From Desulfosudaceae bacterium (GTDB lineage Bacteria; Desulfobacterota; Desulfobacteria; Desulfobacterales; Desulfosudaceae), in assembly GCA_963674745.2 (NCBI GenBank), contig CAXXDV010000001.1:2016001-2080000 (forward strand): a DNA stretch of 64,000 nt, written 5' to 3'. Both the position numbers and the translations under genes were made by a program. The notes under the pieces were generated by a model, which was given only the letters and a program-made list of their open reading frames with translations, made no database searches and was not told the DNA's origin. Positions 28,935 through 55,172 of this stretch are shown here, in pieces (within the stretch, counting starts at the first letter, position 1; each line of letters begins with the position of its first letter).

Positions 28935-28957
28935 ACATTCTTTCCTTCTTAAAAAAT

Positions 28958-31821: not shown

Positions 31822-31904
31822 GGTCAGGCTCCTTGGTTGAATTCGGGTATGGCTGCTGTCTGTATTGTTACCATATTTTCAAAACCGCCACACGGATAAT
31901 TTGC

Positions 31905-33314: not shown

Positions 33315-33368
33315 ATTATCACCTCGTTGTTTGCTTTGGGTCTTGGAAATGTCATTCTAAATTTTCAT

Positions 33369-33397
33369 TTTATAGCCTGCTGCATGCTGTTTGTCAA
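33369..33397 (-). promoter_or_regulatory. sigma70-type promoter of the thiolase operon
   Basis: TTGACA-N17-TATAAA on the minus strand. Confidence 0.65.
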
Positions 33398-33559
33398 TCA
33401 AAATTCTACGATCGCAAAAGAAAAATGCAATACTTTGTTTTTTGGTAAAAACTGTTTTTTTATGGGGCAGGACAGGTCGCCGGAAACGGCACTGGCAGTA
33501 CGTGAAAATCCGAAGGGTGCCGTGCAACGCAGAGATTGGGCTTTTTAAGAAACCAGCAA

Positions 33560-34264: not shown

Positions 34265-34433
34265 CAGGATGCCAAATTGTCAAGAAATAGAATTTCTGTT
34301 TTCCAGGTAGTAAGCGGCCTGAATATTAAGCAGCGACTTTTCAGTAAAAACAGATGGTATTAGATATCATTCGGTTGAGCTGTTTAACTTCGGTGTTGAT
34401 GGTACCCGAGCGAGATCACAAAAATTATGCGCC

Positions 34434-34580
34434 TAAAACTTAACACCTAACACCTTAAAACCAGGAACTTTAATGTAACAAAAAAACTCAAATTGCCTAT
34501 AAGTTACATAATCACTTAACCACTTAATCACTTAACCACTTAATCACATAACCACCTAAAACTTTAACACTCTAAAACGC
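34434..34580. repeat. 7-8-nt tandem repeat arrays, including 9 consecutive octamer units at 34509-34580
   Basis: taatcact taaccact taatcact taaccact taatcaca taaccacc taaaactt taacactc taaaacgc. Confidence 0.8.
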
Positions 34581-34649
34581 TTTCCTGATAGCAGTTTCAG
34601 GGCTGGTGCCAAAAAACGGCCGTCCGGGACGACGCTGATCGGGGACGAG

Positions 34650-35192
34650 TCAAAACCGCTCATAATGGGTAAATTCTTCGATCTCCCGGCGTTTAGGGGC
34701 TTTGGATGGTTTGGCCGGATAACCGACGGGAATCATGGTGACCACTTCGTATCCTTCGGGCACACCGAGAACCCCGGCCACTTTGTTGTGATCAAACAGG
34801 CCCATGACAACCGCTCCCAGCCCCATGTCCTGGGCCTGGAGGCAGATATTCTGGGCGGCAACACCAATGTCGAACATGAACCAGTCGCCGAATTTGGTCG
34901 TGACGACATCCTTATAAAAACCGGAGCTTTTCAGCTTGGCGCACACGATCAGCACCACCGGTGCCGCAATCACCGATTTCTGGGCGGGATTGCCTTTGAG
35001 AACCGCTTCGGCAAGCTGTTCTTTTGTGGCCTGTTCACGAACCACGATGACTTCCCAGCACTGGGTGTTGGCCCAGGACTGGGCCCATTGGACCGATTCA
35101 AGCAGTTCTTTGACCGCTTCTTCGGAAACGGGTTTGTCCTCATATTTTCTGACGCTTCTTCTGTTTTTGATCGCTTCCATGACACAACTCAT
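34650..35192 (-). CDS. nitroreductase family protein
   Basis: RRSVRKY, SWANTQCW, QNICL and GYP motifs. Confidence 0.9.
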   Translation of the reverse strand: MSCVMEAIKNRRSVRKYEDKPVSEEAVKELLESVQWAQSWANTQCWEVIVVREQATKEQLAEAVLKGNPAQKSVIAAPVVLIVCAKLKSSGFYKDVVTTKFGDWFMFDIGVAAQNICLQAQDMGLGAVVMGLFDHNKVAGVLGVPEGYEVVTMIPVGYPAKPSKAPKRREIEEFTHYERF

Positions 35193-35234
35193 GACGCCCT
35201 CCTCTATTTTGACGGTTGCTCCAAATTACCCGGG

Positions 35235-35945
35235 TTATACCAGACGCCCCCGTTCGATATATTCCACATCTTCGACTTCAATGGCATGAACAATATGGCG
35301 GTTCATGCGGCGCTTCATTTCGCCGACGGTTTTTCTGTCTTTGTTGAATTTTTTGGCAAAGGTCATGGTTTCGTTCATCAAATCATCAAGGTGACAGGCT
35401 TTGGTGATGATATGATGCGCTTCACATTCCTCGGCGGTCAAGCGGGCGCCAAGGTATTGCATTTCGTCCATTTTATAAAGCGGAATGGCTGATTTGAGCA
35501 GTTCCAGCATGCCCGGCAGAAAGGGAATGCCCAGATCCACTTCCGGAAAGCAGAAAAAGCCCCGGTCGGACCGCATCAGCCGGAAATCAAAAGCGCACGA
35601 CAGGATAGCGCCGCCGGCAAAGGCATGGCCGGAAATGGCCGCGATGGTGATCATGGGGCTGGTCACCAGCCGTTTGAACATGTCGTTCTGTTTGTAAAGG
35701 AAGTTTTTAACCTCATCGACCTGACCGGCATTAATGAAACCGGACAGCCAGTCCAGGTCGATGCCGTTTGAGAATATTTTTTCATGAGAAGAGGTGACAA
35801 TCATGGTGAGGGCGCTGGTTTCGTTCTCAATCTTATCCATGACGGATAAAAACGCCTCCAGAAAGTCATTGTTGAATCGATTCTCGCCGTCGTTTAAAGA
35901 TACAACCGCCACCTCGTTTTCCAGCGTGTAGGTAACCTTGTCCAT
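35235..35945 (-). CDS. enoyl-CoA hydratase/isomerase family protein
   Basis: FSNGIDL, GHAFAGG, DFR and FPEVDLG motifs. Confidence 0.9.
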   Translation of the reverse strand: MDKVTYTLENEVAVVSLNDGENRFNNDFLEAFLSVMDKIENETSALTMIVTSSHEKIFSNGIDLDWLSGFINAGQVDEVKNFLYKQNDMFKRLVTSPMITIAAISGHAFAGGAILSCAFDFRLMRSDRGFFCFPEVDLGIPFLPGMLELLKSAIPLYKMDEMQYLGARLTAEECEAHHIITKACHLDDLMNETMTFAKKFNKDRKTVGEMKRRMNRHIVHAIEVEDVEYIERGRLV

Positions 35946-38554: not shown

Positions 38555-39949
38555 TTAGTGGCTTGCCCGGTATTCTGCCAGCGACGCCTGAATGTCTTCG
38601 ATCAGCTCTTTCGGGAAGATCCTTCCGGCCAGTTTTTTCTGGACTTTTTTACTGGCTTCTTTGATGACTTTCATATCTTCGGCTGAGAATATTACGGGGG
38701 TCATCCCGCATTTTGATTCAAAGGCCTTGATACATTTGGCTTCATAACTTCTGACCTGCTGCCGCCATTCGGGCTCAAGAGAATTGAACAGGGAAACAAT
38801 AATCTCCTGAACATTGAAGGCAAAGTTATCGGACGCCCCTGTCTGGGCCTGGATTTTGTCTTTGGTCTGGGTGCTGACGACAATGGCCGCCGGGGAATAG
38901 AACAGCGGTGGTTTGATAATATAATTGACATATTGATAGGCCTGCATTCCCAAAAACCAGGCCGCCGGGCCGGTGGCGGTGTCGGCCAGTCCGGTACTGA
39001 GGGCGGAGATTGCCTCGGGTACGGCCACGGGAATGGCATTGATCTTCAGCTCATCAAATAAAGTGGTCTCTACCACGCCGAACCAGGTATACGGCTTCTG
39101 CTTTCTGAGGTCTGCCAGCCCGGTTACTTTGTATTTTGAAAAAAAGTAGAAAAACCCGGTGTCAATCAGGGCACCCAGGATGTACCCCTTTTTTTCAAAG
39201 CCTTCATCCAGCCGTTTCCTGAATTTTTTCAGAATATAGTCAACTTCGTCGTAATTGTCGAACAAAGCCGGCATCAAGAGCGCCGACGCATCCGGAGAAG
39301 CCGTCAAAACGCCTACAGCCGTACAACCGCAGCCGTCAAGCTGGCCGACATCCATTTTTCTCAATATGTCGGCATCTTCTCCCATGACACCGCCGCCGTA
39401 TATTTTTAATTTAACCTTACCGCCTGTCAGTCGATCAAGTTCTGGAATCGCTACGGTTTCCGGTATGAGCAACCAGGGTGTGCCCGGAGGCGCCAGGGTG
39501 CCGACTTTGATCAGGATGGGGTTGTCTTTTTCAACCGGTGATGACCCCACGCGCCACAAAATTTTCTTGAAATCCGGCCACTCCATGACCGGAGAAAAAA
39601 GCGCGTTGATACGTTCCGGCATTTCGTTCAGAAGATATCGGGACGTCTTATGCTGATCCATCAGGGAAAGCAGGGCCGCTTCGACCATGGATTCAAGCTT
39701 GCTTTTTTGTAATTCACCGGTGTTCAAAAGGGTTTTTAACGCCTGCTGCTGCCGTGCCGCTTCAGGTCCGTCATCCTGACCGGCCCACAAGACCGTCAGG
39801 TTGTCTTTGATAAGGCGCTGCGCTTTCTGGTCGGAAACGCTTGCCGCTGTAACGGTTAATGCCTGGCCCGTGATAAATGTTAAAAGAAGGATGAAAAGGA
39901 AGCCTTTTCGCAAGGGGGCTTTTTTGGCCGGAAAATCAAAAACAATCAT
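38555..39949 (-). CDS. TRAP/TPAT solute-binding protein (DctP family) with N-terminal extra domain, paralog 6
   Basis: Signal peptide; GTLAPPGTPW, YGGGVMGED, LDGCGC and ESKCG motifs. Confidence 0.88.
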   Translation of the reverse strand: MIVFDFPAKKAPLRKGFLFILLLTFITGQALTVTAASVSDQKAQRLIKDNLTVLWAGQDDGPEAARQQQALKTLLNTGELQKSKLESMVEAALLSLMDQHKTSRYLLNEMPERINALFSPVMEWPDFKKILWRVGSSPVEKDNPILIKVGTLAPPGTPWLLIPETVAIPELDRLTGGKVKLKIYGGGVMGEDADILRKMDVGQLDGCGCTAVGVLTASPDASALLMPALFDNYDEVDYILKKFRKRLDEGFEKKGYILGALIDTGFFYFFSKYKVTGLADLRKQKPYTWFGVVETTLFDELKINAIPVAVPEAISALSTGLADTATGPAAWFLGMQAYQYVNYIIKPPLFYSPAAIVVSTQTKDKIQAQTGASDNFAFNVQEIIVSLFNSLEPEWRQQVRSYEAKCIKAFESKCGMTPVIFSAEDMKVIKEASKKVQKKLAGRIFPKELIEDIQASLAEYRASH

Positions 39950-39975
39950 CGTTCACCTCGGTATTTATAGTGTTT

Positions 39976-41373
39976 TTATGGATTATGGGTTTTTCTGTAA
40001 TCTGTCAGCGTTTGTTGAATATCACCTATCAATTCTGCGCTGAAAACCTTTCCGGTCAGTTTCTGCTGAACGGCTCGTTCCGCTTTTTTGATAAGCGCCA
40101 TATCTTCGGATGAAAATGTCAATGCCTGCATACCGCATTTGGTTTCAAACGCCTTGAGGCTTTTTGCTTCGTAAAGGCGTATCTGTCGCTTCCACTCCGG
40201 TTCCAGGGTAATGAATTCCGAAACCAGCATTTCCTGGAAATTTTGCGCAAAGACGTCAGTGACACCCAGATGCTTCTGCAGCCGGTCTTTAATATCGGTG
40301 CTGGTAATAACGGCCGCGGGAGAATAGGAAAGGGGCGGTTTGAGATAAAATCCGACGTATTGATACGCCTGCATACCCAGCATCCAGGCCGCGGGGGACA
40401 ATGTCGCGTCGAATTTACCGGAACTGAGGGCGGATACGGTTTCAGGGGATTTCACATGGACGGCCTTGAGGCCCAGTTCGTCATAAAAGGTGGTTTCCAG
40501 AATGCCGAACCAGGTCTGAATTTTCTGGTTTTTAAGCCCCTCCAGGCCGGACACATAATTTTTTAAAAAAACATTGAAAAAGCCGGTGTCAATCAGGGCG
40601 GCCAGAAGGTATCCTCTTTTTTCAAACGCCTCGTCCAGCCGTTTTCTGAATTTTTCACAGATGAAATCCACTTCTTCATAATTGTTGAACAGGCCGGGCA
40701 GTAACAGTACCGAGGCTTCGGGACAGGCCCCCAGGACACCCAGTGCGGTACAGCCGCAACCGTCCAGTTGACCGGTTTTCATTTTTTCCAGGACATCGGG
40801 ATCTTCTCCCATAACACCGCTGCCGTATATCTGGATCAGGATTTTTTTTCCGCTTAATGCTTCAATATCGGCAATAACCGTATCTTCCGGAAGGTTCAGC
40901 CATGGCGTGCCGGGCGGGGCCAAAGTGCCGACCTTTATTTTAAACGGATTATCTGGGTCGGCTGCCGATGACAATTCCTTCCAGATGATGCCGCGCATTT
41001 CTTTCCAGTTCAGGTGGGGTGAAAAGAGCGTGTTAAACTGTTCCGGCAGGGCTTTTAACGTATATCGTGACGTTTTATGACGATTCAGAATGGAAAGAAT
41101 CGTTGCTTCCATCATGCTTTCAAGCTCTGCTTTCTTGATTGCCCCGGATGACAGCATGCTTTTTAATGCTTTTTGCCGTGATATCAATTCCGGGCCGAAT
41201 GACCGTCCGGTCCATAAGTCTTCCAGGCTGTCACGCAGAATGTTTTGAAATTTCTGTTTGGCGATGTCCGTCGCCATAGCGGTGCGCGCCTGGCAGAAAA
41301 TCACCATTATCAGCACAAAGCACAGGATGGCCGGTGATCTTTTCATTTTCGTTCGACAATTAAAAACGGTCAT
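39976..41373 (-). CDS. TRAP/TPAT solute-binding protein, paralog 5
   Basis: Same motif set as its neighbours; probable start MTVFN. Confidence 0.88.
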   Translation of the reverse strand: MTVFNCRTKMKRSPAILCFVLIMVIFCQARTAMATDIAKQKFQNILRDSLEDLWTGRSFGPELISRQKALKSMLSSGAIKKAELESMMEATILSILNRHKTSRYTLKALPEQFNTLFSPHLNWKEMRGIIWKELSSAADPDNPFKIKVGTLAPPGTPWLNLPEDTVIADIEALSGKKILIQIYGSGVMGEDPDVLEKMKTGQLDGCGCTALGVLGACPEASVLLLPGLFNNYEEVDFICEKFRKRLDEAFEKRGYLLAALIDTGFFNVFLKNYVSGLEGLKNQKIQTWFGILETTFYDELGLKAVHVKSPETVSALSSGKFDATLSPAAWMLGMQAYQYVGFYLKPPLSYSPAAVITSTDIKDRLQKHLGVTDVFAQNFQEMLVSEFITLEPEWKRQIRLYEAKSLKAFETKCGMQALTFSSEDMALIKKAERAVQQKLTGKVFSAELIGDIQQTLTDYRKTHNP

Positions 41374-41593
41374 AAGGCTTTCTCCGGTTATATAAGGCCT
41401 CAATCCAACACAGTCTTTATAAAATCAATTATAGTAAAAAAGCTGTAAGTCAAAATGTCAAGAGACATTCGGATTGATGCCTTTCCGAATACCTGCCGGT
41501 GCTTTTGACATGTCAACGAGAAGGTACTGAAAGAATATCGTATCGGGCCGATTCATTTATTTGAAAGGCCCGGGCGGCCGGAATCAGTTCCGG

Positions 41594-42985
41594 CTATTGT
41601 CCGGCTCTGAATTCGGCCAGTGCGTTCTGAATATCATCGAGCAGGTCTTTGGGGAAAATTCTATCAGCCAGCTTCTGCTGCACGGCTTGACTTGCTTTTT
41701 TTACGGCCTGCTGGTCCGCTATCGCAAAAGTGATGCTTTTCATGCCGCATTTGGTCTCAAAGGCCTTGAAGCTTCGTTGCTCGAACACCCTGATCTGCCG
41801 TTTCCATTCAGGTTCAACCGCATTCCATTCAGACGACAGGACTTCTATCATGTTCCGTGCAAATACGGCTGATATGCCGGTCTGCTGCTGAATTCGTTCA
41901 AAGGTTTGGGTACTGACAATAACAACGGCGGGTGAATAAACCAGTGGTTGATCAAGATAAAAAAATGTGTATTGATAGGCCTGCATACCCAGCATCCAGG
42001 CCGCCGGCGCCACATTGACATCGGCCTGCCCGGTATTGAGTGCCGCGATGATCTCGGGAACACCCAGCGGTATGGGCGCAATCCCCAGTTCTTCAAGCAG
42101 CGTCTTTTCTATGATGCCGAACCAGGTGATAATGTTCTGGGCTCTTAACGCGGCCAGATCAGTGGGCTTATTTCTTGAAAACAGGTAAAAAAATCCGGTA
42201 TCAATGACCGCCCACAGGACATAACCCTGTTTTTCAAAGCCTTCATCAAATCGTTTTCTGAATTTTTCTAAAATATAATCCACTTCATCATAGTTTTTGA
42301 ACAAGCCGGGCAGCAGCATCACAGAAGCTTCAGGGCAGGCCTCCAGCACACCCAGGGCGGTGCAGCCGCAGCATTCAAGCCGGCCGTTGTCCATTTTTTT
42401 CAGGATGTCGGTGTCTTCACCCATGACGCCGCCGCCGTATATTTTGATCGAAATCTTGCCATCACTCAGCCGTTCTATTTCAGGAATGGCAATGTTTTCA
42501 GGTACGCTCAGCCATGGCGTGCCGGGCGGGGCCAGTGTACCGACCTTGATCCGGACAGGCGTATCTTTGTTAATCGGTGCGGTCAGTATCCGCCACATGA
42601 TCTCTCTGGCCGTGTTCCAGTTCATATGGGGTGCGAACAGCGCCTCGAAACGGTCAGGCAGGTCTTTTAAAACATAACGGGATGTCTCCTGGCGTTTCAT
42701 TATGGTCCCGAATGCTTTTGCCGTCATATTTTCAAGCTCGCCCCCGGTCACGTCGCCGTTTGTCAACATGCGTTTTAAGGTCTGTTGCCGCTGTTTTAAT
42801 TCCGGGCTGAATTCCCGGCCGGCCCACATGGCTTCCAGGCTGTCGGTCAATATGTTCTGAAACGCATCCCGGGTGGCTTCAGCTGCCATGGCGGGGCTTG
42901 ATGGCAGGAGCAGTATCACCAGGATGGCAAGACAGGCCGGTATCCATCCCCTGGTTTTGAAAAAGCAGTCATTCTTCAGAGCCAT
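41594..42985 (-). CDS. TRAP/TPAT solute-binding protein, paralog 4
   Basis: Same motif set, with LECCGC variant. Confidence 0.88.
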   Translation of the reverse strand: MALKNDCFFKTRGWIPACLAILVILLLPSSPAMAAEATRDAFQNILTDSLEAMWAGREFSPELKQRQQTLKRMLTNGDVTGGELENMTAKAFGTIMKRQETSRYVLKDLPDRFEALFAPHMNWNTAREIMWRILTAPINKDTPVRIKVGTLAPPGTPWLSVPENIAIPEIERLSDGKISIKIYGGGVMGEDTDILKKMDNGRLECCGCTALGVLEACPEASVMLLPGLFKNYDEVDYILEKFRKRFDEGFEKQGYVLWAVIDTGFFYLFSRNKPTDLAALRAQNIITWFGIIEKTLLEELGIAPIPLGVPEIIAALNTGQADVNVAPAAWMLGMQAYQYTFFYLDQPLVYSPAVVIVSTQTFERIQQQTGISAVFARNMIEVLSSEWNAVEPEWKRQIRVFEQRSFKAFETKCGMKSITFAIADQQAVKKASQAVQQKLADRIFPKDLLDDIQNALAEFRAGQ

Positions 42986-43011
42986 GATGTCATTCCCTTT
43001 TCTTTCGAAAT

Positions 43012-44403
43012 CTAATGTGTCGCCCTGTATTGGGCCAGTGCCCGCTGCATGTCATCAATAAGGTCACGCGGGAATATTTTGCCTGCCAGTTTCTGCTGGA
43101 CGGCCTTACTCGCTTTTGCAAGAACCTGTTGGTCCTGGGGTGAAAATGTCATGGCGATCATGCCGCATTTTGTTTCAAACGCTTTTAAGCTTTTTTCTTC
43201 GTAGAGCCTGATCTGGCGTTTCCATTCGGGCTCAATTATGCCCCACTCATACGTCATTATTTCCAGGATATTATGGGCGAAGGTGGCTGATTTCCCCGTC
43301 GTTTTCTGAATTTTTTCTATTATGTGACCGCTGACAATAACGGCTGCCGGTGAGTAAACCAGCGGCGGCTTAAGATAGTAGTTCGAATACTGGTAAGCCT
43401 GCATGCCCAGCATCCAGGCGGCAGGAGCGACGTTGATCTCGGCCTGGCCGGTTGTAAGGGCGGATACTGTATCCGGTACGGCCACGGGGATGGGGTTGAT
43501 CCCCAGTTCACCATAAAACGTTTTTTCTATGGTGCCGAACCAGGTAATGACTTTCTGTTTTCTGATATCTTCAAGACCGGCTGTTTTGTTTTTTGAAAAC
43601 ATGTAAAAAAACCCGGTGTCAATCAGCGCCAGCAGAATGTCTCCCTGATCTTCAAAACCCTTGTCCAGCCGTTTTCTGAATTTTTCAAAAATATAATCCA
43701 CCTCGTCATAATTTTTAAACAGACCCGGAAGCAGCAAAGCCGAAGCCTCGGGACAGGCCTCCAGCACGCCCAGGGCGGTGCAGCCGCAACACTCAAGCTG
43801 CCCTTCGTCCATTTTTTTCAGGACATCGGTGTCTTCTCCCATGACGCCGCCGCCGTAAATTTTGGTCAGAATCCTGCTGCTGCTCAATCGTTCTATTTCG
43901 GGGAACGCAATGTTTTCCGGTACACTCAACCAGGGGGTGCCCGGCGGGGCCATGGTGCCGACCCGGATTAATATGGGATTGTTTTGATCTATTGTGCTTA
44001 CCATCGCCCCCCACATGATTTCTTTGGCCGTTTTCCAGTTCATTACGGGCGAAAGAAGGGCGTCAAAACGGTCAGGGAATGTTTTAGCAGTATATCGGGA
44101 GGTCTTCTGACGATCCATGATGGCAGGAAACACCTTTTTCATCATGTTTTCAAGATCGGCCTTGCTCACCTGGCCGCTTGTCATCATGCCTGTCAGGGCC
44201 TTCTGCCGCTGCTTGAGCGCCGGGGTGAAATCACGGCCTGCCCATATGGCCTCCAGGCTGTCCTGCAATATGCTTTCAAATTCAGCCCGGGTGGCTGCCG
44301 ATACCGGGGCGACTAGCGCCTGCCCGGCGACAATAACCAACAGGATAACGAATATCCGCACCAGAGGCCTGACTGCTTCGCCATACATTTTTGTTATCGC
44401 CAT
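43012..44403 (-). CDS. TRAP/TPAT solute-binding protein, paralog 3
   Basis: Same motif set, with LECCGC variant; GGAGG RBS before MAITK. Confidence 0.88.
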   Translation of the reverse strand: MAITKMYGEAVRPLVRIFVILLVIVAGQALVAPVSAATRAEFESILQDSLEAIWAGRDFTPALKQRQKALTGMMTSGQVSKADLENMMKKVFPAIMDRQKTSRYTAKTFPDRFDALLSPVMNWKTAKEIMWGAMVSTIDQNNPILIRVGTMAPPGTPWLSVPENIAFPEIERLSSSRILTKIYGGGVMGEDTDVLKKMDEGQLECCGCTALGVLEACPEASALLLPGLFKNYDEVDYIFEKFRKRLDKGFEDQGDILLALIDTGFFYMFSKNKTAGLEDIRKQKVITWFGTIEKTFYGELGINPIPVAVPDTVSALTTGQAEINVAPAAWMLGMQAYQYSNYYLKPPLVYSPAAVIVSGHIIEKIQKTTGKSATFAHNILEIMTYEWGIIEPEWKRQIRLYEEKSLKAFETKCGMIAMTFSPQDQQVLAKASKAVQQKLAGKIFPRDLIDDMQRALAQYRATH

Positions 44404-44508
44404 TGTCACGCCTCCTTGTATATTGGTGTGGTCCGTTATGATAAGCATATGAAATAAAACAAATACTTTTTTAGTATCAGGCAAATCCTCAAAATATTCA
44501 AGCCAATA

Positions 44509-45903
44509 TTAATTTTGCGCCCGAAAGGCTTCAAGGGCTTTTTGTATATCTTCCAGTAGGTCTGCCGGAAACGCCTGGCCGGCCATTTTTTTTTGCACGG
44601 CCTTGCTTGCCAGCTCAATTCGTTTTTGATCTTCCGGTGATAATGTTATGACCTTCATACCGCACTTGGTCTCAAAGGCCTGGAGGCTTTTTTGTTCGTA
44701 ATCTCGTATCAGGCTGTTCCACTTTGGTTCAAATGCGTTGAATTCAGAAACGATTATTTCTTGAATATTGTGAGTAAACGTCGAGGAAATCCCCAGTTGT
44801 TTTTGAAGCCTTTCGATCATGCCGGTGCTGACAAAAACAGCTGAAGGCGAGTAAAGCAGCGGCGGTTTGATATAATAGTTAACATATTGATAAGCCTGCA
44901 TGCCCAGCACCCACCCCGCCGGCGCCAGGGAAGCATCTGCCACGCCCAGGCTGAGTGACGAAACGATGTCGGGTACTGACACCGGCATGCCACGAATACC
45001 TATTTCCTGGTAGAGCGTTGTCTGAATGACACCAAACCAGGAAAGCATTCTCTGCTTCTTTAAATCTTCCAAATCGTTGATTTTGTTTTTTGAAAAAAAA
45101 TAAAAAAAGCCGGTGTCGACAAAGGCCCCCACAATGTATCCGCGTTCTTCAAACGCTTTTTCCAGGCGGTTTCTGAATGTTGAGATGATGTAATCGATTT
45201 CCCCATAGTTACGGAAAAGACCGGGCATCAACAGCGCCGATGTATCCGGTGCTGCGGCCAGAACACCCAGCGCGCTGCAGCCGCAGCCGTCAAGCCGGTC
45301 ATCTTCCATTTTCTGCATGACATCGGTATCGCTGCCCATAACCCCGCCGCCGTAAATTTTTACCCGGATTTTGCCCTGGCTCAATTTTTCTATTTCCGGC
45401 AGCAGTATCGTCTCGGGCGCGTTTAACCAGGGGGTCCCCGGAGGCGCCAGGGTACCGATTCTGACCAGTACGGGGTCATCTTCTTTGGCCACGGATGATA
45501 TCGCTCTCCACATGATTTTCCGGAAACCGTCCCAGTCCATATAAGGCGAGAAAAGCGTATTAATGTGTTCGGGAAGAGTTTTTAAAACATATCGCGTTGT
45601 TTTATGGGTGTTCATTATGGTGAGAAGGCTCTGCTCTGTCATGATCTCAAGCTCGTCTTTGCTTACACCACCTGTGGCCAGCATCTGTTTAAGTGTATCT
45701 TGCCGCCGCAACAATTCCGGGCTGGATGTCTGACCGGTCCATAAGACGGTCAGGCTGTCCTGCAATATGTTTTTAAATTCTGCCAGGGAATTGTCTGCTG
45801 CGCTTGTCAATGTCGGTTGCCCTGCCGCGAAAATCAGCATCAGGGCCAAAAAGCACACGGCCGACACCCGGTTCCGCCCGGTACGAATGTTGGAAATGGC
45901 CAT
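44509..45903 (-). CDS. TRAP/TPAT solute-binding protein, paralog 2
   Basis: Same motif set; GGAGG RBS. Confidence 0.88.
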   Translation of the reverse strand: MAISNIRTGRNRVSAVCFLALMLIFAAGQPTLTSAADNSLAEFKNILQDSLTVLWTGQTSSPELLRRQDTLKQMLATGGVSKDELEIMTEQSLLTIMNTHKTTRYVLKTLPEHINTLFSPYMDWDGFRKIMWRAISSVAKEDDPVLVRIGTLAPPGTPWLNAPETILLPEIEKLSQGKIRVKIYGGGVMGSDTDVMQKMEDDRLDGCGCSALGVLAAAPDTSALLMPGLFRNYGEIDYIISTFRNRLEKAFEERGYIVGAFVDTGFFYFFSKNKINDLEDLKKQRMLSWFGVIQTTLYQEIGIRGMPVSVPDIVSSLSLGVADASLAPAGWVLGMQAYQYVNYYIKPPLLYSPSAVFVSTGMIERLQKQLGISSTFTHNIQEIIVSEFNAFEPKWNSLIRDYEQKSLQAFETKCGMKVITLSPEDQKRIELASKAVQKKMAGQAFPADLLEDIQKALEAFRAQN

Positions 45904-45951
45904 GGTCAAGCCTCCTTATGTTGATGTATGATAAAGGAATATATAATCGGT

Positions 45952-47343
45952 TTAATGCTGAGCCCTGTAGTTTTCGAGCGCCTTGTTTATTTTTTCGATA
46001 AAATCCTTTGAAAAAGCCTTGCCGGCCAGATTCAGCTGAATGGCCTTACCGGCTTTCTCGATTCGCTGCTGGTCTTCAGGGCTAAGCGTAAACGCGCATA
46101 TGCCGCATTTGGTTTCAAAGGCTTTCAGGCTTTTTTCTTCATAGGCTCTGATCTGACGGTTCCATTCCGGTTCAATCGCCATAATTTCAGCAATGATTAA
46201 TTCTTGAATGTTTGATGCCAGGGTATTGGATATCCCCACCTGTTTTTCTATTCTTTTTACGGTTTGCCGGGTGACAAAAATAGCCGTAGGTGAATAGAGC
46301 AACGGCGGCTTGCAGTAAAAGTTCGCGTATTGATAAGCCTGCATGCCCAGCATCCAGGCAGCGGGGGACAGGACGGTATCTCCGGCATCGGTGCCGAACG
46401 CCGAAACAACGTCAGGTACTGCAACGGGTATAGAATTGATTCCAAGTTCTTGAAACAGGGCCGCCTCAATCGCCCCGAACCATGTCAGTACCTTCTGCTT
46501 TTTTAAAGCCGGCAGCCCGCTTATTTTATTTTTTGAAAACAGATAAAAATATCCGGTATCAATCAGTCCGGCAAGTACGTATCCCCTTGCCTCAAAGGCT
46601 TTATCAAGGTCTTTTCTGAATGTTTTGCAGATGTAATCAATTTCGTCATAATTCTTGAATAAACCGGGCAGCAGCATTGCAGATGCTTCCGGAGAGGCTT
46701 CCAGAACACCCAGCGCAGTGCAACCGCATCCGTCAAGCCGGCCGGCGGTCATTTTTTTCAGGATTTCCGTGTCCTCGCCCATGACACCGCCGCCGTAAAT
46801 TTTTAAGCGGACTTTTCCCTGGCTTATTTTGGAAATTTTAGGGAAGAGCATCGTTTCAGGCACTTCAATCCAGGGGGTCCCCGGTGGGCCAAGGGTGCCG
46901 ATGGTGATCCGGACAGGGTCGGCTGCATCAACCGATGACACCAGTGCCCACCACATTATTTTTTCAAACTCCTGCCAGTTCATGACAGGTGAAAACAGTG
47001 TGTTGATCTGTTCAGGGAGCGCAGCCAAGATATATCGTGACGTTTTATACTTATCTACTATGGGAACAAGGGAAGATTTCACCATATTTGAAAGATCGGC
47101 CTTTCCCATAGGGTTTGATTTCAGCAGGGTTTTAAAGGCGTTTTGCTGTTGTTTAAACGCCGGCGTGTGTGATTTTCCGGTCCATAGCGCAACCAGGCAG
47201 TCATTTATGACGGCCTGAATGACCTTCGGAGTTGAATTTTCCGCCTTCGCAGCCGGCGAACCGGCGGCGACAATCATCATAATAATAAGACAGGACAGCG
47301 TCGGCAGTCGTTGAATTTGCAGATGAACTTTAGAAATGCTCAT
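45952..47343 (-). CDS. TRAP/TPAT solute-binding protein, paralog 1
   Basis: Same motif set; ATG preceded by a G10 run. Confidence 0.88.
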   Translation of the reverse strand: MSISKVHLQIQRLPTLSCLIIMMIVAAGSPAAKAENSTPKVIQAVINDCLVALWTGKSHTPAFKQQQNAFKTLLKSNPMGKADLSNMVKSSLVPIVDKYKTSRYILAALPEQINTLFSPVMNWQEFEKIMWWALVSSVDAADPVRITIGTLGPPGTPWIEVPETMLFPKISKISQGKVRLKIYGGGVMGEDTEILKKMTAGRLDGCGCTALGVLEASPEASAMLLPGLFKNYDEIDYICKTFRKDLDKAFEARGYVLAGLIDTGYFYLFSKNKISGLPALKKQKVLTWFGAIEAALFQELGINSIPVAVPDVVSAFGTDAGDTVLSPAAWMLGMQAYQYANFYCKPPLLYSPTAIFVTRQTVKRIEKQVGISNTLASNIQELIIAEIMAIEPEWNRQIRAYEEKSLKAFETKCGICAFTLSPEDQQRIEKAGKAIQLNLAGKAFSKDFIEKINKALENYRAQH

Positions 47344-47592
47344 GAAGCCCCCCCCCCTTGAGTTCAAATGGCTGACAAACGTTTTTGTCTAATTGTTTTT
47401 TCCGCGTTTTTCTTAACAGCTTCCATATATTCGTTAAGGCGGGTTTTTGAAAGCCGCCGTTCTACCCGGGTTGGAATCGGCATGGACGCCTCGATGATCG
47501 GCGCATAAAATAATCAGTAAAAGCAAAAACGGCCTGCGTCAGCATGACGCAGGCCGAAATGATCACGATCACCCACTGTTTTTTCATGTTTC

Positions 47593-47885
47593 TTAATGGG
47601 ATGCTCTGTATTCCGCCAGCGCCTTTTGAATCTGGTCGATCAGGTCTTTGAAAAAAGCCTTGCCGGCCAGTTTCTGCAAAACGGCTGCACTGGCCTTCTT
47701 GATGCGATCCTGGTCTGCGGGCGGAAGATTCATGGGTGTTTGGATGCCACATTTGTTTTCAAAGGCCCGCAGCGTTTTTTCTCATCGCTTCTGATCTGTT
47801 GTTTCCATGTAACCATCAGTTCCATAATGAAGCAGGAAAGCATCGACGATTTTTCAGTACCAGAACACAAATCAGGAAAGGCCAT
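47593..47885 (-). pseudogene. internally deleted seventh solute-binding protein paralog
   Basis: MAFPDLCSGTEKSSMLSCFIMELMVT runs directly into WKQQIRSDEKK, then after a frameshift TLRAFENKCG...LQKLAGKAFFKDLIDQIQKALAEYRASH*, matching the paralog C-termini. Confidence 0.85.
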
Positions 47886-47950
47886 TATCACCTTATCCTT
47901 TTTGTGTTTTTTCAGAGCCTATGTCTGTATCTTCATTCTTTTCCAGAACC

Positions 47951-49261
47951 TCATAGCAGGTCCATGGGGTCAATCAGGTTTTTCTTGGTCGTAAATTTAA
48001 GCAGATACAGTGAAAAATCGGGAACGTAGGTTATTAAAATAAGCCCGATTACCAGGATAATGAAGAACGGAATAACCGATTTTAAAATTACCGGAAAAGA
48101 CTTGTTGAATTTTATCGAGGAGATAAACAGGCTCATACCGATTGGCGGGGTGACAAAGCCGAGCTCCATATTGGCCAGAAAGATGATGCCCAGATGAATC
48201 GGATCAACGCCATACTTTAAGGCAATGGGAACAATAATCGGCACCACGATGGCGCAAGCTGAAAATATGTCCATGGCCGTACCGACAAACAGGAGGAAAA
48301 TATTCAAAAGCAGGAGAAAGACATATTTATTGCTGACATGGTTGCAGATGATTTCAAACAATTGATCCGGAATGGACAGGGTCACAAACACATCCGTCAA
48401 CCCCAAAGCCATCCCCACAATGATCAGAATTGAGCCGTTCATGATCATGCTGCGACGAATAACGGTGATTAATTTGGTTACGGTCATATCCTTGGTGACA
48501 AACAGTTCGACCAGTAATACATAGACCGCGGTAACGGCGGCGGCTTCAGGGGCGGAGAAGATGCCGCCCAGGATACCGCCGACAACGAAAAAAGGCAGCG
48601 GCAATTCCCACATGATATCTCTGGTTGACGCCAGTATCTCAGAAAGGGAAATTTTTTTATGCCTGGTGTATTTAATGCCGAAGAAGAAAGAGTATATCCA
48701 CATCAATACCAGCAGGAGTAAGCCGGGAATAAGTCCGGCGATGAACATGTCTTCAACGTTCAGCGGTGTCTGCTGGCTGGCGATGACGCCATACAGAATC
48801 AGCGGCAGGCACGGCATAAACAGGGTGCCCAGGCTGCCGCCGGTGGTAATAAGCCCCAGGGTGAAGTTCTCGGGATAGTTGTCCTGGCGAAAAGCCGGGT
48901 AGAGGAGGGTGCCGATGGCCACAATGGTAATGGCACTGGCACCCGTGAAAGCCGTGAATATGGAACAGGCAATCAAGGCCACCAGGCACAACCCGCCGGG
49001 CATCCAGCCGATAAGCGAGTTGGTGAATCGCAGCATTTTTTCCGGGACCCGGCTTTCAGCCAGCAGATATCCGGAAAAAATAAAGAGTGGTACTGCCACA
49101 AACACCGGCATGGTGGTCAGCCGGTAAAAATCCGTAAACAGGGTAGCGGGTGCGATGCCAAGCACAACAAAAAAACTCGCAAAAGCCGCGCCGCCGATGA
49201 TAATAAACAGTGGTTCCCCGAAAACTGCCAGCAGGACAAGCCCTAATACAATAAAGCCCAC
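47951..49261 (-). CDS. dctM: TRAP transporter large permease
   Basis: AVPLFIFSG, GWMPGGL, FTAFTGAS, GVDPIHLGIIF and ELGFVTPPIG motifs. Confidence 0.93.
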   Translation of the reverse strand: MGFIVLGLVLLAVFGEPLFIIIGGAAFASFFVVLGIAPATLFTDFYRLTTMPVFVAVPLFIFSGYLLAESRVPEKMLRFTNSLIGWMPGGLCLVALIACSIFTAFTGASAITIVAIGTLLYPAFRQDNYPENFTLGLITTGGSLGTLFMPCLPLILYGVIASQQTPLNVEDMFIAGLIPGLLLLVLMWIYSFFFGIKYTRHKKISLSEILASTRDIMWELPLPFFVVGGILGGIFSAPEAAAVTAVYVLLVELFVTKDMTVTKLITVIRRSMIMNGSILIIVGMALGLTDVFVTLSIPDQLFEIICNHVSNKYVFLLLLNIFLLFVGTAMDIFSACAIVVPIIVPIALKYGVDPIHLGIIFLANMELGFVTPPIGMSLFISSIKFNKSFPVILKSVIPFFIILVIGLILITYVPDFSLYLLKFTTKKNLIDPMDLL

Positions 49262-49285
49262 GCCGTCTCCATTTCTGCTATCGCA

Positions 49286-49792
49286 TTATTGCTGTTTTTG
49301 TCTTTCTTTTATTTCGATTATATCCGTCAAAAAACAAACGAAAAACTTATAGGCCATGGAAAGAAAACAAACAGGGAAAATCAGTGTGATCACCCACTCC
49401 GGGGTGTGTATGGCCTGTTCTATTTTTCCCACGCTTTTGGTTACAAGTACATAGTGTGCGGCAAAGGAACAAAACATCAAGCAGGCCATGCTGGCGATAA
49501 ACGTCAACACCGCGTTCAAGTATTTATTATATGGAAATTTGAGAATCCCCTGAAAAAGGTCAATATTAATATGACTTCTTTCAAAACTCGTTGTCGCGAT
49601 ACTTGCCCCCAGCATGGCCAGTACCAGCAACGCCATATTATTGTAGACGGCCATCCAGATAATGGAAAAAGAAAAGAAATTTCGCAGGACGACCTGACTG
49701 AACGCGAAAACCGAAAGTGACAACAATAATATGACGATGGCCGTCAGTTCGATGTTGTATATAGCTTTTTCAATTTTATACAAAAGTTTCAT
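49286..49792 (-). CDS. dctQ: TRAP transporter small permease
   Basis: QVVLRN, LGASIA and HINID motifs; four TM segments. Confidence 0.9.
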   Translation of the reverse strand: MKLLYKIEKAIYNIELTAIVILLLSLSVFAFSQVVLRNFFSFSIIWMAVYNNMALLVLAMLGASIATTSFERSHINIDLFQGILKFPYNKYLNAVLTFIASMACLMFCSFAAHYVLVTKSVGKIEQAIHTPEWVITLIFPVCFLSMAYKFFVCFLTDIIEIKERQKQQ

Positions 49793-49798
49793 TTTAAG

Positions 49799-50668
49799 TT
49801 ACCGGCTCCCCATTTTTTCCAGGTAAATTTCAGCCTTGTATTTGGCAATCTGATTTAACAGTTCCACTTCCGGCATCTGTCCGTCCGGGGTGTCGATAAT
49901 GCTCTGATAAATGGCCCTGGTATCGTTGTCGTCTGTAACATAAAACCGGGCGTAAAACACCTTGGAAAGGAGAAACTTACCATCGTTCATATCGGAAATG
50001 GTCTGGAACGCTTTTTTTGCTTTTTGTTTGTCGCCGCCGAAGGTGGCCGGCAGCATGCTGTTGACCGTTCCCACAAACAGATGGGCATAGCCGTAGAAAT
50101 AATCGCCGTCAACTTCAGCTACATGGTTGGCCATATTGTTCACCGCGGCCAGGTCGATGGCGATCATGGGATCACCGGCGTTCAGCAGCACATTGGCGCC
50201 CATGCAGGAGGCCGTCCACATCAGAACCGGAATGAATTTTTTGCTTTTGATTTTTTTGCAGGCCACACTGATGCTTTCACCTTTTTTAAGTGCATTGCGG
50301 AACCCCCGGTGATGTTTCAGCGCTTTTATCCCCAGTTCGGTCCCCCGGGTGTATAAGGTGGTCGCCTGTTCAGGATCTACATCTTCAACCATCATTCCCA
50401 GGCCGGTATAAGCTTTTGTCGCCATGATCAGCAACAGCATGTCGTCAGGAGCGGTTTCCAGCATTCCTTCGAGCAGCAGGAGCTGTCCCGGAAGCCCCTT
50501 TTTTACGAGATCAAGATTTTTTTGCTGGAAAAGTGCAACCTCGATATTCTCAATGGCAGGGTGTGCGATCTTAATCCCTGAGCGCATCATGGAAGTGCAT
50601 CCGGATACCATTACCAGAAGAGCGGCTACGGCACACATACACACCAATTTCTGTTTGAATGAGGTCAT
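49799..50668 (-). CDS. TRAP transporter T component (TatT), lipoprotein
   Basis: Lipobox VSGC (Cys24); LP..LLLLEG.L...P, A..LY.RG...G..AL, P..FGGD...A...F and LLN.IAK.KA patterns; adjacent to dctQM. Confidence 0.82.
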   Translation of the reverse strand: MTSFKQKLVCMCAVAALLVMVSGCTSMMRSGIKIAHPAIENIEVALFQQKNLDLVKKGLPGQLLLLEGMLETAPDDMLLLIMATKAYTGLGMMVEDVDPEQATTLYTRGTELGIKALKHHRGFRNALKKGESISVACKKIKSKKFIPVLMWTASCMGANVLLNAGDPMIAIDLAAVNNMANHVAEVDGDYFYGYAHLFVGTVNSMLPATFGGDKQKAKKAFQTISDMNDGKFLLSKVFYARFYVTDDNDTRAIYQSIIDTPDGQMPEVELLNQIAKYKAEIYLEKMGSR

Positions 50669-50954
50669 GCTGGTCTCCCTTCCTTAACTTATGTTTTTTA
50701 TAAAAACCCGATCAAACCGGGAATGCTCCAAAATATGAGCTTGAACCCTTATGGTATCAGTTCATAAAAACGTGGTAACTATAACGGACAACAAACCGGC
50801 AGTCAAACCATTTCAGAAGATATCCCGAGAAGTTCGGTGTCTGCGTGCATTTTATAATTAATAAAAGTAAAACGTTTAATTTTTTAAATTGAATAATGTT
50901 CATTAACCGTATTTGTCAATAGTTTTTCGACTGAGCCCTGCCGGGGATAAAGGA

Positions 50955-50983: not shown

Positions 50984-51033
50984 GGACCCTGTCCGTATCA
51001 ATCAACCCCTTTTATTTATTGCAGGAAACAGCA

Positions 51034-54000
51034 ATGAAAAAATTTTTGGTGTTTGCTTTGATGATATGTGCCGTTATGCCGCTAGCGGCAGCCCCCCTGG
51101 AACGAAACGATGTCCCGGCCCCTTTAAAGCCTTGGATTGACTGGGTTTTGCATGGTGAAAAAGAGGATTTGTGTACGATTTTCTATAATGATGGTGACCG
51201 GTCTGTCTGCGCCTGGCCGTCATTTTTGAATCTGGAGGTCCAGAAATCAACGGCCCGATTCTCTCAGCAATGGCGGGTGTATTCGGAGGATACATGGCTG
51301 CTCCTTCCGGGTGGCAGCAACATGTGGCCGCAGGAAGTGATGGCCAATGGTACCACGTTTCCGGTGGGCGAAAGGGCCGGCCGGCCGGCGGTGTATATTA
51401 AAACCCCCGGAGAGTATTCGATTAATGGTGTGTTCAGTTTTGATCGTCTGCCGGAATGGCTTCGCGTACCCGAACAGACCGGTCTTGTTAACCTTTCCAT
51501 CAGGGGAAAGGATGTTTCTTTTCCCCGCCTGGATAGGGAAGGGCGGCTTTGGCTCAGTCAGGAGAAAGACAACCAGCCGGAAACCGAGAGCCGGGAAAAC
51601 CGGTTTCAACTCCAGGTTCACCGCCTGATTCAGGACGATATACCGCTTCGGATGATAACGCGGCTGGAGCTTTCCGTCTCAGGCAAGCATCGGGAGGTTC
51701 GCCTGGGCAAGGCCAATACGGAAGGGTTTATCCCCATGCGGATCAACAGCGACCTGCCTGTCAAGATTGACAGTGACGGTATTCTTGTGGCCCAGGTCAG
51801 GCCGGGTAAGTGGGCCATTGAAATTACGGCCAGGCACAAGGGGCCGGTAACGGAATTGGCGCTGGCCACGGTCGGCGGTTTTGATGTGAAGGAAGAGACC
51901 TGGGCTTTTGACGCCCGTCGCCATTTGCGCCAGGTCTCAATTGAAGGACCGTCCCAGATCGATCCCATGCAGACCACCGTTCCGGATGCCTGGCGACAGT
52001 ATCCGGTTTATCTCATGACATCGCAGGACACGATGACCTTTATCGTCAAGAAGCGGGGTGATCCCCAGCCGAAGCCGGATCAATTGAATCTGCAACGGAC
52101 CCTGTGGCTGAATTTTGACGGGCGGGGATGTTCCGTCAGGGATCACATCACCGGCAACCTGACCACCGGCTGGCGGCTGGAAGTAAATCCGCAGCAGGAG
52201 CTGGGGCGCGTGACGGTTAATGACCAGGAGCAGTTTATCACCCGCGCGGCGGACACCGGTAAGGTCGGTGTGGAAGTGCGCTTCGGGGAAATCAACCTTT
52301 CGGCCGAAAGCCGGATCAGCCGTTCGGGCAGGATAGCGGTGACGGGTTGGGACAGAGATTTTCAGTCGGTAAAAGGAACGCTAAACCTGCCTCCCGGGTG
52401 GTCGTTGTTTCATGCGGCGGGTATCGACAATATACGTCAGACCTGGCTGAAGCAGTGGAACCTGCTGGACTTGTTTCTTGTTCTCGTGGTTGCGGCTGCG
52501 GTTGCCCGGCTCTGCGGCGGCCGCTGGGGGATGGTATCCCTGATAACCTTGATTCTGTTGAATCATGAAGCGGATGCGCCCCGCTGGATATGGTTGCATC
52601 TGCTGGCGGCCATGGCGCTTTTGCGGGTGTTGCCCCGGGGAAAACTTCGTTTCCTGGTGGACTATTACCGTTTCGGCACGATTGTCTGCCTGGTGGTGAT
52701 CAGCCTGCCCTTCATGGTCTCCCAGTTCAAGTACGGTTTTTATCCTCAGCTGGAAAGGCCCTGGCAGGTCATGGGGCCGGGCGGACAAGCGGCGCAAGCG
52801 GTTGATGAACCGGTTCGGCGGTCGCGGACCATGACCGGGACGGCGTCGGAAATGCGGTTTGATAAGACGACCGGGTTAACAGCCGGTTTATATGATTCAT
52901 CTCCGCGAAAAGGGCTGTCTCCCCAGATGGGCATGATGGACATCGGGGCCAAAATCCAGACCGGACCGGGTATCCCCAACTGGAGCTGGAATCAGGTGGC
53001 CTTCTCCTGGAACGGGCCGGTGGCCAGAGGCGATCAGATGAAGTTTTTGTTCATATCCCCTGCGGCCAATCTGGTGCTGGCGGTGATGCGGGTATTGCTG
53101 CTGGCTGCCATGATTTTCGGGTTGACCGGGATCGGCTACGCGGCCGGAAAAGGGTTGGAATTCTCGAAGCTAAAACCCGGGCGTGCGGCCGTCTTTGTCT
53201 TTATTCTTATGATCTGTTGTCTGATGACGCCGCTAAAAGCCGATGCCGCTGACGCGTTTCCGTCTGATTCCCTGCTGAAAGAATTAAAGAGCAAACTCAC
53301 CGATAAGGAAGCGCCGGCATGCCTTCCCAATTGTGCTTCCAGCCCACGGATGCAGATGGTAATTGACAGTAAGTCATTACGAATCAGTATGGAAATCAAT
53401 ATCTTGTATGATGATGTGGCCGTGCCGCTGCCGGGCTCGGATCAGCACTGGCTACCGGAAAAGGTGCTGGTCGATAATCGTTCCGCGACTGATCTTTATC
53501 GTTCCCCTTCCACCGGCCAACTGTGGCTGCGTGTGACCAGGGAAGCCACCAGGTGGATTTACAGGGCCGGTTGCCGCGGCGTCAGACGGTTCAGTTGCTT
53601 TTGCCTTTAAAACCGCATTTTGTTGAAGCCCGGGCAGAGGGGTGGACGATAGACGGTCTGCATGAAAATGGTGTCGCCGACAACCAGTTGCAGTTTACCC
53701 GGATCAATCTGGATGATGGAAAGAAATCCGCCGGATTTTCCGGAGAGTCTTTTGACCCCCTGTTGCTGCCGCCGTTTCTGGAGGTGCAGCGTACGATATG
53801 TCTGGGGTTGGACTGGCAGGTGGAAACCAGGATCGAGCGCCTGACACCCGACGGGCCGGCCGTGGTGGCCGCTGTCCCCCTGCTGGAAGGCGAGTCGGTC
53901 ACCTCGGATATCCCCGTAGAGAACGGCCGGGTACTGATTAATCTGGGGCCGAACCAGCGGTCTTTCAGCTGGACATCCGCTCTTGAAAAAACCGACCGAC

Positions 54001-55172
54001 TGGTTTTAAAAGCGGCTGAAACACTGGAGTGGACCGAGGTCTGGCGGGCCAATGTCGGTCCCATCTGGCATGCCGACATAGAAGGGATTCCGGTTATTCA
54101 TCACCGGGACAGGGGCGGCAACTGGCTGCCGGAATGGCGGCCCTGGCCGGGTGAAGAGGTCGTTTTACACCTGACCCGCCCGGAGGGGATCGGCGGTCAG
54201 ACGCATACCATTGAAAACAGCCGGCTGGTGGTAAAACCGGGGCAGCGCATCATTCACACCGATCTGGAGCTGAACATCAGGAGCAGTCGGGGCAGCCGGC
54301 AGGTGATCACCCTGCCGGAAAATGCGGAAATACAGAATGTTGAGATTAACGGTCAATCTCAGACGATAAACGAAAGCGGTCGCAAAGTGACGTTGCCGTT
54401 GACACCGGGGCAGCAGAAGATCCGACTGACCTGGTGGGAAGACAAAGAGCTCGGCATTAAGTGGGTCACACCCCGAATCGACCTGGGGGTTTCCAGCGTA
54501 GACGCCTTTATCACCGCTCATATGCCCCAGGATCGCTGGCTGTTGTTATGCGGCGGACCCCACGTGGGACCGGCGGTGTTGTTCTGGAGTGCCGTTCTGG
54601 TTATCGTGCTGATGTCGGCCGGCCTGGGCAGGATTGCGATAACCCCCCTGTGGTTTCGGCACTGGCTGCTGCTGGGCCTGGGCTTGACGCAAACGTCGTT
54701 GCTGGCGGCGCTGCCGGTGGTGGCCTGGTTTTTAATGCTGGGTTACCGCAAAAGAAAGGGGCCCCAGCTTTCCCGCCTGGCCTTCAACGGAACCCAGGTG
54801 CTGCTGGTTTTTCTTACCGGTGCCGCCTTACTGGCGCTTCTGGCCGGCATCAAACAGGGGCTGCTCGGATACCCGGACATGCAGGTGGCCGGTAACGGGT
54901 CCGGCAATTATGTTCTTAACTGGTATGCGGATATCGCCGATAACACCCTTCCCCGGGCGTGGGTGATTTCGGTGCCGATTGCCGTATACCGCCTGTTTAT
55001 TCTGGCCTGGGCCCTGTGGCTGGCCTTTGCCCTTATGCGATGGCTGAACTGGGCCTGGGAGTGTTTCAGCTCCGGCGGGCTGTGGCGTCCTTTCAACCTG
55101 CGGCAAAGAATCGGAAAAAAACCCGGTGGGGCGGATGGAAACGGCACGCCCATCGATCTGGCGGATGGCTGA
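51034..55172 (+). CDS. giant (~1380 aa) hypothetical membrane protein split by one frameshift
   Basis: ORFs 51019-53610 and 53523-55172 overlap; adding one base near 53535 gives LWLRV-DQGSHQV; signal peptide, TM clusters and internally repeated modules. Confidence 0.75.

Follow-up and report, generated by a model that had tools for sequence, protein, structure and literature searches.

How many receptors can serve one TRAP permease? Tripartite ATP-independent periplasmic (TRAP) systems usually have one substrate-binding receptor (P) per set of membrane subunits (QM), and they are usually described in these terms, as carboxylate-specific importers with one receptor per permease. The TPATs (tetratricopeptide repeat (TPR)-protein-associated TRAP transporters), which have an additional T component, are a poorly understood exception thought to move lipids. 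The question is raised by a locus in the window analysed here, a stretch of 64,000 nucleotides of contig CAXXDV010000001.1 from the genome of a Desulfosudaceae bacterium (G000; sulfate-reducer type, 5.55 Mb, 99.96% complete). On the minus strand of the window, from 50668 down to 38555, nine intact genes and one remnant are arranged in the order T-Q-M, P remnant, then six intact genes for unusually long P proteins. The locus encodes a TPAT-type TRAP importer that comprises a TatT lipoprotein, DctQ, DctM and long DctP receptors. Together with 13 further long P genes dispersed over the genome, it probably forms a multi-receptor TPAT, in which 19 receptors would share one T/Q/M core and each would have its own ligand.

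The T component is encoded by tatT (49799..50668), which lies directly upstream of dctQ (49286..49792) and dctM (47951..49261) on the same strand. These three co-oriented genes had been named in an earlier reading of the DNA, hereafter the original prediction, and their identities were confirmed by Pfam and TIGR00786 matches. The 289-aa TatT product, a TPR-like lipoprotein that had been proposed to be TatT-like, matched the Pfam family TAtT (PF16811) in a hidden Markov model search with an E value of 2.1e-39 and 135.9 bits (cut-off 26.5). Its N terminus appears to be a signal peptide with a V-S-G-C lipobox at its end, and a putative cysteine lipobox signal was likewise seen in the seven full-length orthologs compared. 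The sole solved chain that matched TatT by sequence was PDB 8g52 (E 6.4e-5, residues 145-278). The small membrane subunit, of 168 aa, matched Pfam DctQ (PF04290, E 1.5e-12), and the large one, of 436 aa, matched both Pfam DctM (PF06808, E 1.2e-77) and TIGR00786 (333 bits versus a cut-off of 268). TatT orthologs with 56-77% identity were found in eight related genomes; the DctQ orthologs are 69-85% and the DctM orthologs 74-89% identical. The locus has the defining features of a TPAT that were examined, namely a TatT-family gene encoded with TRAP genes, DctQ and DctM, a lipoprotein TatT and, as described below, a receptor without the Arg-147 equivalent; a T-P complex is predicted.

The six intact P genes, all on the minus strand, were found at 45952..47367 (copy 1, open reading frame (ORF) of 471 aa, likely start 47343), 44509..45909 (copy 2, 466 aa), 43012..44484 (copy 3, ORF of 490 aa, likely start 44406), 41594..42985 (copy 4, 463 aa), 39976..41403 (copy 5, ORF of 475 aa, likely start 41373) and 38555..39949 (copy 6, 464 aa, used for modelling); the ORF starts of copies 1, 3 and 5 are probably over-extended. 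All six matched Pfam DctP (PF03480) with 58-94 bits (cut-off 23.4), with E values for copies 1 to 6 of 2.8e-16, 2e-26, 7.7e-17, 6.4e-19, 1.1e-15 and 1.1e-20, and all six matched the NCBIfam model TRAP_S1 (150, 167, 145, 165, 131 and 174 bits, respectively; cut-off 50). The copies are 49-54% identical to copy 1, and 104 columns are invariant among the six. The description of six intact but diverged P genes thus holds. It was incomplete, as both family matches are limited to residues ~150-445 of each copy and the extra ~110 N-terminal residues constitute a separate conserved domain. Each long P consists of a secretion signal, a five-helix N-terminal domain of ~107 residues (the N-domain; residues 43-149 in copy 1 and 38-144 in copy 2) and a DctP fold. 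The putative signals have Ala-rich cleavage sites and no lipobox cysteine. An AlphaFold2 model of copy 6, built from a 58-row alignment, had a mean predicted local distance difference test score (pLDDT) of 90.3 and a predicted template modelling score (pTM) of 0.84, and in this model the signal peptide is followed by five predicted helices (residues 33-135) and a complete DctP fold. A Foldseek search of the PDB with the same model aligned ~315 columns, corresponding to the DctP fold, with target-normalised template modelling (TM) scores of 0.82-0.88 among the best-ranked matches; of the 44 matches listed, none aligned more than 324 columns of the 464-residue model.

The N-domain is newly found, with no Pfam family and no convincing fold match. 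Against Pfam, none of 18 copies scored better than E 0.0047, and the domain folded alone (pLDDT 87.8) gave no Foldseek match in the PDB at E <= 0.001. The best fold comparisons reached a VIA Z of 7.9 (cullin repeat, KaiA), which is in a range common for helical bundles, and a search against Atlas gave no usable match. A search of 1.84 billion representative proteins with a profile made from 18 N-domains found 18 proteins at E <= 0.001, of which three were full-length long P, two were repeat-type proteins and 13 were proteins of 55-244 aa. The two repeat-type matches were taken as spurious: a 3376-aa plant-type leucine-rich-repeat protein, shown by Pfam to be a repeat protein, and a 791-aa protein that matched through short repeated stretches only. 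Six of the 13 small proteins were fetched. Five of them continue into the first DctP motif and are therefore fragments of long P rather than stand-alone domains; the sixth, of 146 aa, stops before it. The N-domain was seen only as a fusion to DctP. One dispersed 552-aa long P (L011:4809-6464; G000:C1:1008309-1009964) carries the N-domain twice in tandem, and the same tandem duplication is present in its orthologs in genomes G002, G007, G009, G010 and G109.

In the whole genome we counted three TatT loci, six DctM-family genes (the sixth in a 688-aa open frame) and 23 DctP-family genes, the latter comprising 19 long P, two short P and two classical P. The two other TPAT loci, which the original prediction had missed, have the order P-Q-M-T with an ordinary P of 341 and 347 aa, and the two classical P genes adjoin their own QM. 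Among these three TPAT and two classical sets, only the T-Q-M of the window is without an ordinary P. The 13 dispersed long P had also been missed, so that the six receptors per core of the original prediction stand for the array, and the ratio in the genome is 19:1 rather than 6:1. The dispersed genes are mostly surrounded by regulators (TetR, GntR, AraC, MerR-TetR) and catabolic enzymes, among them coenzyme A (CoA) ligases, old-yellow-enzyme reductases, metallo-beta-lactamase-fold proteins and dehydrogenases, and also by alpha/beta hydrolases with a lipase chaperone.

To compare the ligand-binding residues, the G-x-R position was aligned across the solved receptors 4p47, 7bbr, 4xfe, 4ng7 and 8t9t. 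We take the arginine of this motif to be at the Arg-147 position, in view also of the 96.8% conservation given for Arg-147 (PMC4646407). It is replaced by F, L or C in all 19 long P, and by A and D in the two short P. Ordinary DctP-type TRAP systems such as SiaPQM share with the locus the DctP fold and the DctQ and DctM subunits; in contrast, they have no TatT and no N-domain, and their receptors clamp the carboxylate of the ligand with Arg-147, which is present in 96.8% of members (PMC4646407; this paper, PMC5812351 and PMC11713862 are cited here and below from excerpts). The 3% of DctP proteins without Arg-147 mostly have Phe instead and have been tied to hydrophobic ligands, and Tp0957 of Treponema pallidum has Ala at the equivalent position and a hydrophobic pocket (PMC4646407). 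TatT-type systems have also been tied to hydrophobic ligands (PMC5812351, PMC11713862), as the original prediction had stated, and two TatT proteins bind long-chain fatty acids (PMC11713862). With Phe, Leu or Cys in place of the arginine, and with long-chain fatty acids as ligands of TatT homologs, the long P probably bind hydrophobic or amphipathic compounds, for example fatty acids or other catabolic substrates of aliphatic or aromatic nature. The strand that bears the arginine equivalent varies among the paralogs, with F, Y, M or N, then F, L or C, then Y, N or H. The long P also have cysteines, in the motifs C-G-C and A-F-E-x-K-C-G, that are absent from the two short P of the genome. In copy 6 these family-specific cysteines are residues 207, 209 and 414. 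Paralog D_1628k lacks both Cys-209 and Cys-414, and D_564k lacks Cys-414 only; the joint loss in D_1628k hints at a disulfide in the long P.

Named long P homologs were found in Thermodesulfobacteriota and Desulfobacterales metagenome-assembled genomes (MAGs), in Desulfosudis oleivorans, which is placed in Desulfosudaceae, and in Desulfococcus sp. 4484_241. The titles of several of these MAG records name tar biofilm, and a hydrocarbon-rich habitat fits as far as titles go. The TatT ortholog and the N-domain occur together in nine of the 13 genomes that were compared from the family to which the window belongs, and the remaining four, which are 79-96% complete, have neither. Among 251 sampled genomes of the order, six have the N-domain, five of them from this family and one from another. 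In a genome of the same genus (G002), T-Q-M is followed by five long P, the first of them directly after dctM. T-Q-M is followed by two long P in G009 and by at least one in G006, and it has one downstream and one upstream in G007; in G001 a long P starts after dctM and the contig then ends, and in G004 the order is P-T-Q-M, again followed by the contig end. In more distant genomes, with one or two long P each, G258 and G259 have a TatT (38-41% identity) that is followed, after ~1.9 kb and in the same orientation, by a single long P, a spacing that fits Q and M between them, and in G260 and G261 TatT and long P are neighbours on opposite strands. The adjacency of T-Q-M and long P is thus kept in at least six genomes, and related Desulfobacterales genomes have T-Q-M-long P as a conserved module, in which one to five copies are adjacent. 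Total numbers of long P differ widely: 19 in G000, 13 in G002, five in G009, four in G007 and two or three in the others, with eight N-domain matches in G001 at 71% completeness. The expansion to 13-19 copies is specific to the genus. A copy number that varies across related genomes had been named in the original prediction as support for its model.

A maximum-likelihood tree of the long P was made from 46 rows, after one truncated duplicate row had been dropped. All six genes of the array group with six of the dispersed G000 copies and seven from G002 in a clade restricted to this genus (support 95/94). Within it, the partner of copy 5 is the fourth gene of the G002 array (100/96) and that of copy 6 is a dispersed G002 gene (92/96), and copies 3 and 4 are mutual closest relatives (100/94). 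For other dispersed copies there are one-to-one orthologs in different genera. The array has thus arisen through birth, death and relocation of copies that go back to a single T-Q-M-linked receptor. A seventh long P gene, noted in the original prediction as a deleted P gene, does survive as a remnant of ~70 C-terminal codons with one frameshift (~47596..47810, minus strand), within the 584-nt interval between dctM and copy 1. In a blastx comparison it was 60% identical to copy 3 and 58% identical to copy 1 over 62 residues. The end of dctM and the remnant are also joined on a 629-nt contig of run X4, which comes from a related population and has 40 differences, and this makes an assembly artefact at the junction unlikely. 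Run X1, possibly the source sample, has contigs that cover the whole stretch with no differences. Runs X4 and X8 also contain joints that jump forwards or backwards from one paralog to another; with short sides and likeness below 95%, they are taken as cross-mapping between paralogs rather than structural variants.

A predicted complex of TatT with copy 6 had ipSAE values of 0.80, 0.79 and 0.80 in three runs, compared to 0.00 for the best of three controls. Of 157 solved complexes 116 reached the ipSAE mark of this test, as did two of 215 mismatched pairs; these counts are only rough because our own alignments were used. The three runs share at least 96% of contacts, and the pLDDT of the partners is at least 89. 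In the predicted complex, P would contact TatT through the motifs P-P-G-T-P-W, Y-G-G-G-V-M-G, L-G-M-Q-A-Y-Q-Y and A-F-E-x-K-C-G, and the N-domain is predicted to lie outside the interface. Across the 19 paralogs, the 33 predicted interface residues have a mean majority fraction of 0.87, compared to 0.66 in the rest of the DctP domain, and 14 of these 33 columns are invariant compared to 32 of 288 elsewhere in the domain. None of 10000 random residue sets was as conserved. The two short P deviate in two of these motifs, and the TatT orthologs linked to long P have a common signature of their own at the predicted contact.

These results are consistent with a mechanism in which the long P paralogs would take turns at the same TatT/DctQM core. 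The docking face would be retained across the paralogs and the differences would lie within the cleft, so that one and the same permease could receive from each paralog its own hydrophobic or amphipathic substrate. For the dispersed copies, expression would be set locally by the adjoining regulators. The interchangeable receptors of the original prediction gained computational support from the co-occurrence of the genes, their synteny, the variable copy number, the nearly invariant predicted docking face and the loss of the arginine; that one core is shared is what we infer from these. A bolder form of this proposal, which we put forward only tentatively, is that a single TatT-DctQM core has up to 19 interchangeable receptors that are co-regulated with their own catabolic genes, with the N-domain as an integral part of a new receptor class. 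In this form, the invariant Arg of a T-S-R-Y motif in the N-domain might replace the lost Arg-147, or the N-domain might cap the hydrophobic pocket. If true, the 19-receptor network would be the TRAP counterpart of the Bordetella Bug network, and a hydrocarbon- or lipid-degrading sulfate reducer would gain a plug-in uptake of many hydrophobic substrates.

The copies could instead be redundant, all serving one ligand class such as fatty acids and differing in regulation, affinity or chain-length preference. Many cleft motifs are invariant or nearly so in the 19 paralogs, and the clade of 19 sequences confined to the genus points to repeated recent duplication, as for copies 3 and 4 (100/94). 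We consider redundancy or dosage unlikely, however, since the paralogs are only 46-55% identical, the strand with the arginine equivalent is variable, one-to-one orthology is maintained between genera for several of the paralog lines, and the dispersed copies are surrounded by different catabolic sets and regulators.

A further alternative is that the long P act apart from the permease, as periplasmic carriers or chaperones or as co-sensors for membrane kinases, with the N-domain binding a partner. Two dispersed copies do directly adjoin histidine-kinase/response-regulator pairs (L014, L015), the N-domain is outside the predicted TatT interface and has no convincing family or fold match, and about a quarter of TatT homologs operate without PQM partners (PMC11713862). 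These points have to be set against the conserved adjacency of T-Q-M and long P in at least six genomes, the lack of any other P gene for the T-Q-M of the window, and the complete DctP fold of the long P (TM 0.82-0.88 among the best-ranked matches, normalised to the solved receptors), which together make this alternative slightly less probable still than redundancy. A decaying array, in which tandem amplification would have produced duplicates without function and the frameshifted copy of ~70 codons would be the first casualty, is very improbable, given that all six copies have open frames and full-length family matches, that 104 invariant columns are common to them, and that some have orthologs in G002.

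Several points nevertheless weigh against the shared core with receptors of different specificity. A T-P complex of T. pallidum has been solved (4di3/4di4, which are among the structure matches), and the score of the TatT-P prediction may therefore reflect memory or likeness. As the predictor also sees conservation, the complex score and the conservation of the face are not independent of each other. Conservation at the mouth of the cleft could, moreover, serve folding or docking to QM rather than to TatT. The paralogs are alike over large parts of the presumed pocket region, so the ligands may be closely related rather than diverse. Being related, the genomes that were compared do not count as independent samples. 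The second TPAT operon is preceded, at a distance of 1.7 kb and on the same strand, by a dispersed long P (L010), so more than one core may be in use. The last point is a strong terminator-like hairpin with a U-run, overlooked in the original prediction, between T-Q-M and the array.

This hairpin (47530..47556, minus strand) lies in the interval between the remnant and copy 1. It has a 12-bp stem with nine G-C pairs and a stability of -23.9 kcal/mol (z -5.71), and none of 200 shuffled sequences was as stable. It may end transcription or stabilise the upstream message. The locus had been described as a single TRAP operon; the genes and their order agree with this description, but because of the hairpin it is not assured that T-Q-M and the array are one operon. 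Since the first P of G002 directly follows dctM, co-transcription of T-Q-M and P was probably the older state. A 41-codon ORF on the minus strand (~47468-47590) starts just past the stop of the remnant, encodes a signal-peptide-like hydrophobic core and has the hairpin within it. It has no counterpart in G002, as dctM there directly precedes the first P gene.

The closest known system is the TPAT of T. pallidum (TatT Tp0956, TatP(T) Tp0957 and TatQM), in which the TatT is a trimer with a hydrophobic pore that docks onto the cleft of TatP(T) (PMC5812351). Both systems have a TatT-family lipoprotein encoded with TRAP genes and a P without the Arg-147 equivalent, for which a hydrophobic ligand has been proposed, and in both the mouth of the cleft faces TatT, in the solved structure there and in the prediction here. 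They differ in several respects. Q and M are separate genes at the locus studied here, in the order T-Q-M-P, and P has an added five-helix N-terminal domain. The long P appear to be soluble, with a cleavable signal without lipobox cysteine, whereas the T. pallidum receptor is lipid-anchored, a difference that may not be defining beyond spirochaetes. The arginine equivalent is Ala in Tp0957 and Phe, Leu or Cys here, and the operon of T. pallidum has one tatP(T) (PMC5812351) compared to six tandem and 13 dispersed receptors here. The TatT of Enhygromyxa salina (8G52, palmitate-bound; PMC11713862) belongs to the same Pfam family as the TatT of the window, although the two are only distantly similar, over residues 145-278, and the excerpts of that paper mention no multi-receptor context.

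In number of receptors, a parallel is the Bug/TctC family of Bordetella, where 76 Bug genes, mostly orphans, stand against two tctAB sets and some of the genes adjoin regulators or catabolic genes (PMC5812351). This is a likeness of working mode, since the tripartite tricarboxylate transporters (TTT) are an unrelated transporter family with carboxylate binders, no T component and no added N-domain. In a full-text literature search we found no multi-receptor TPAT and no long DctP receptor, although the primary TPAT and TatT papers might mention them; PMC5109826 mentions only an ordinary TRAP system. This agrees with the statement of the original prediction that the architecture was not recognised as described. 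What appears to be new relative to known TPATs is the multiplied receptor and the undescribed N-domain. The locus is a natural series of 19 diverged receptors with apparently one docking face and one core, in a lineage akin to alkane and fatty-acid degraders. It makes testable the cargo of TPATs, the acceptance of many receptors by one TRAP permease, and the birth and death of receptors beside a transporter.

The surroundings of the locus were also examined. A sigma-70-like promoter site (TTGACT-17-TATAGT, 50778..50806, minus strand) lies ~110 nt upstream of tatT; it is a candidate by consensus match only, at 10 of 12 positions. A scan of the window found no sigma-54-like promoter upstream of tatT or between the hairpin and copy 1, and the 47 sigma-54 matches in the window compare with 76.6 expected by chance. 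Divergent from tatT, on the plus strand at 51019-55172, are two ORFs of 863 and 549 aa with several hydrophobic stretches; neither had a Pfam match. They overlap by 88 nt in different frames, and because of this overlap and the hydrophobic stretches the two may together form a single gene for a large membrane protein, with either a frameshift or a programmed overlap.

Elsewhere in the genome, two consecutive Gp49-like/helix-turn-helix toxin-antitoxin-like pairs lie near a dispersed long P (L013:8193-10383; G000:C3:1004693-1006883). A universal-stress-protein gene followed by a gene of ~250 aa without a Pfam match accompanies long P twice: in G000 between a long P and the second TPAT operon (L010, C1:679001-693000), and in G009 between the two long P that follow T-Q-M (L032). 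The far end of the array meets a convergent SpoU-type methylase gene. At 27432-35945 on the minus strand, 2.6 kb past the array, is a beta-oxidation-like gene set that includes an acyl-CoA dehydrogenase, a CoA ligase with an N-terminal 4Fe-4S ferredoxin domain, two nitroreductases, an SCP-x-type thiolase, an enoyl-CoA hydratase and a LysE exporter, and this flank has partial synteny with G002.

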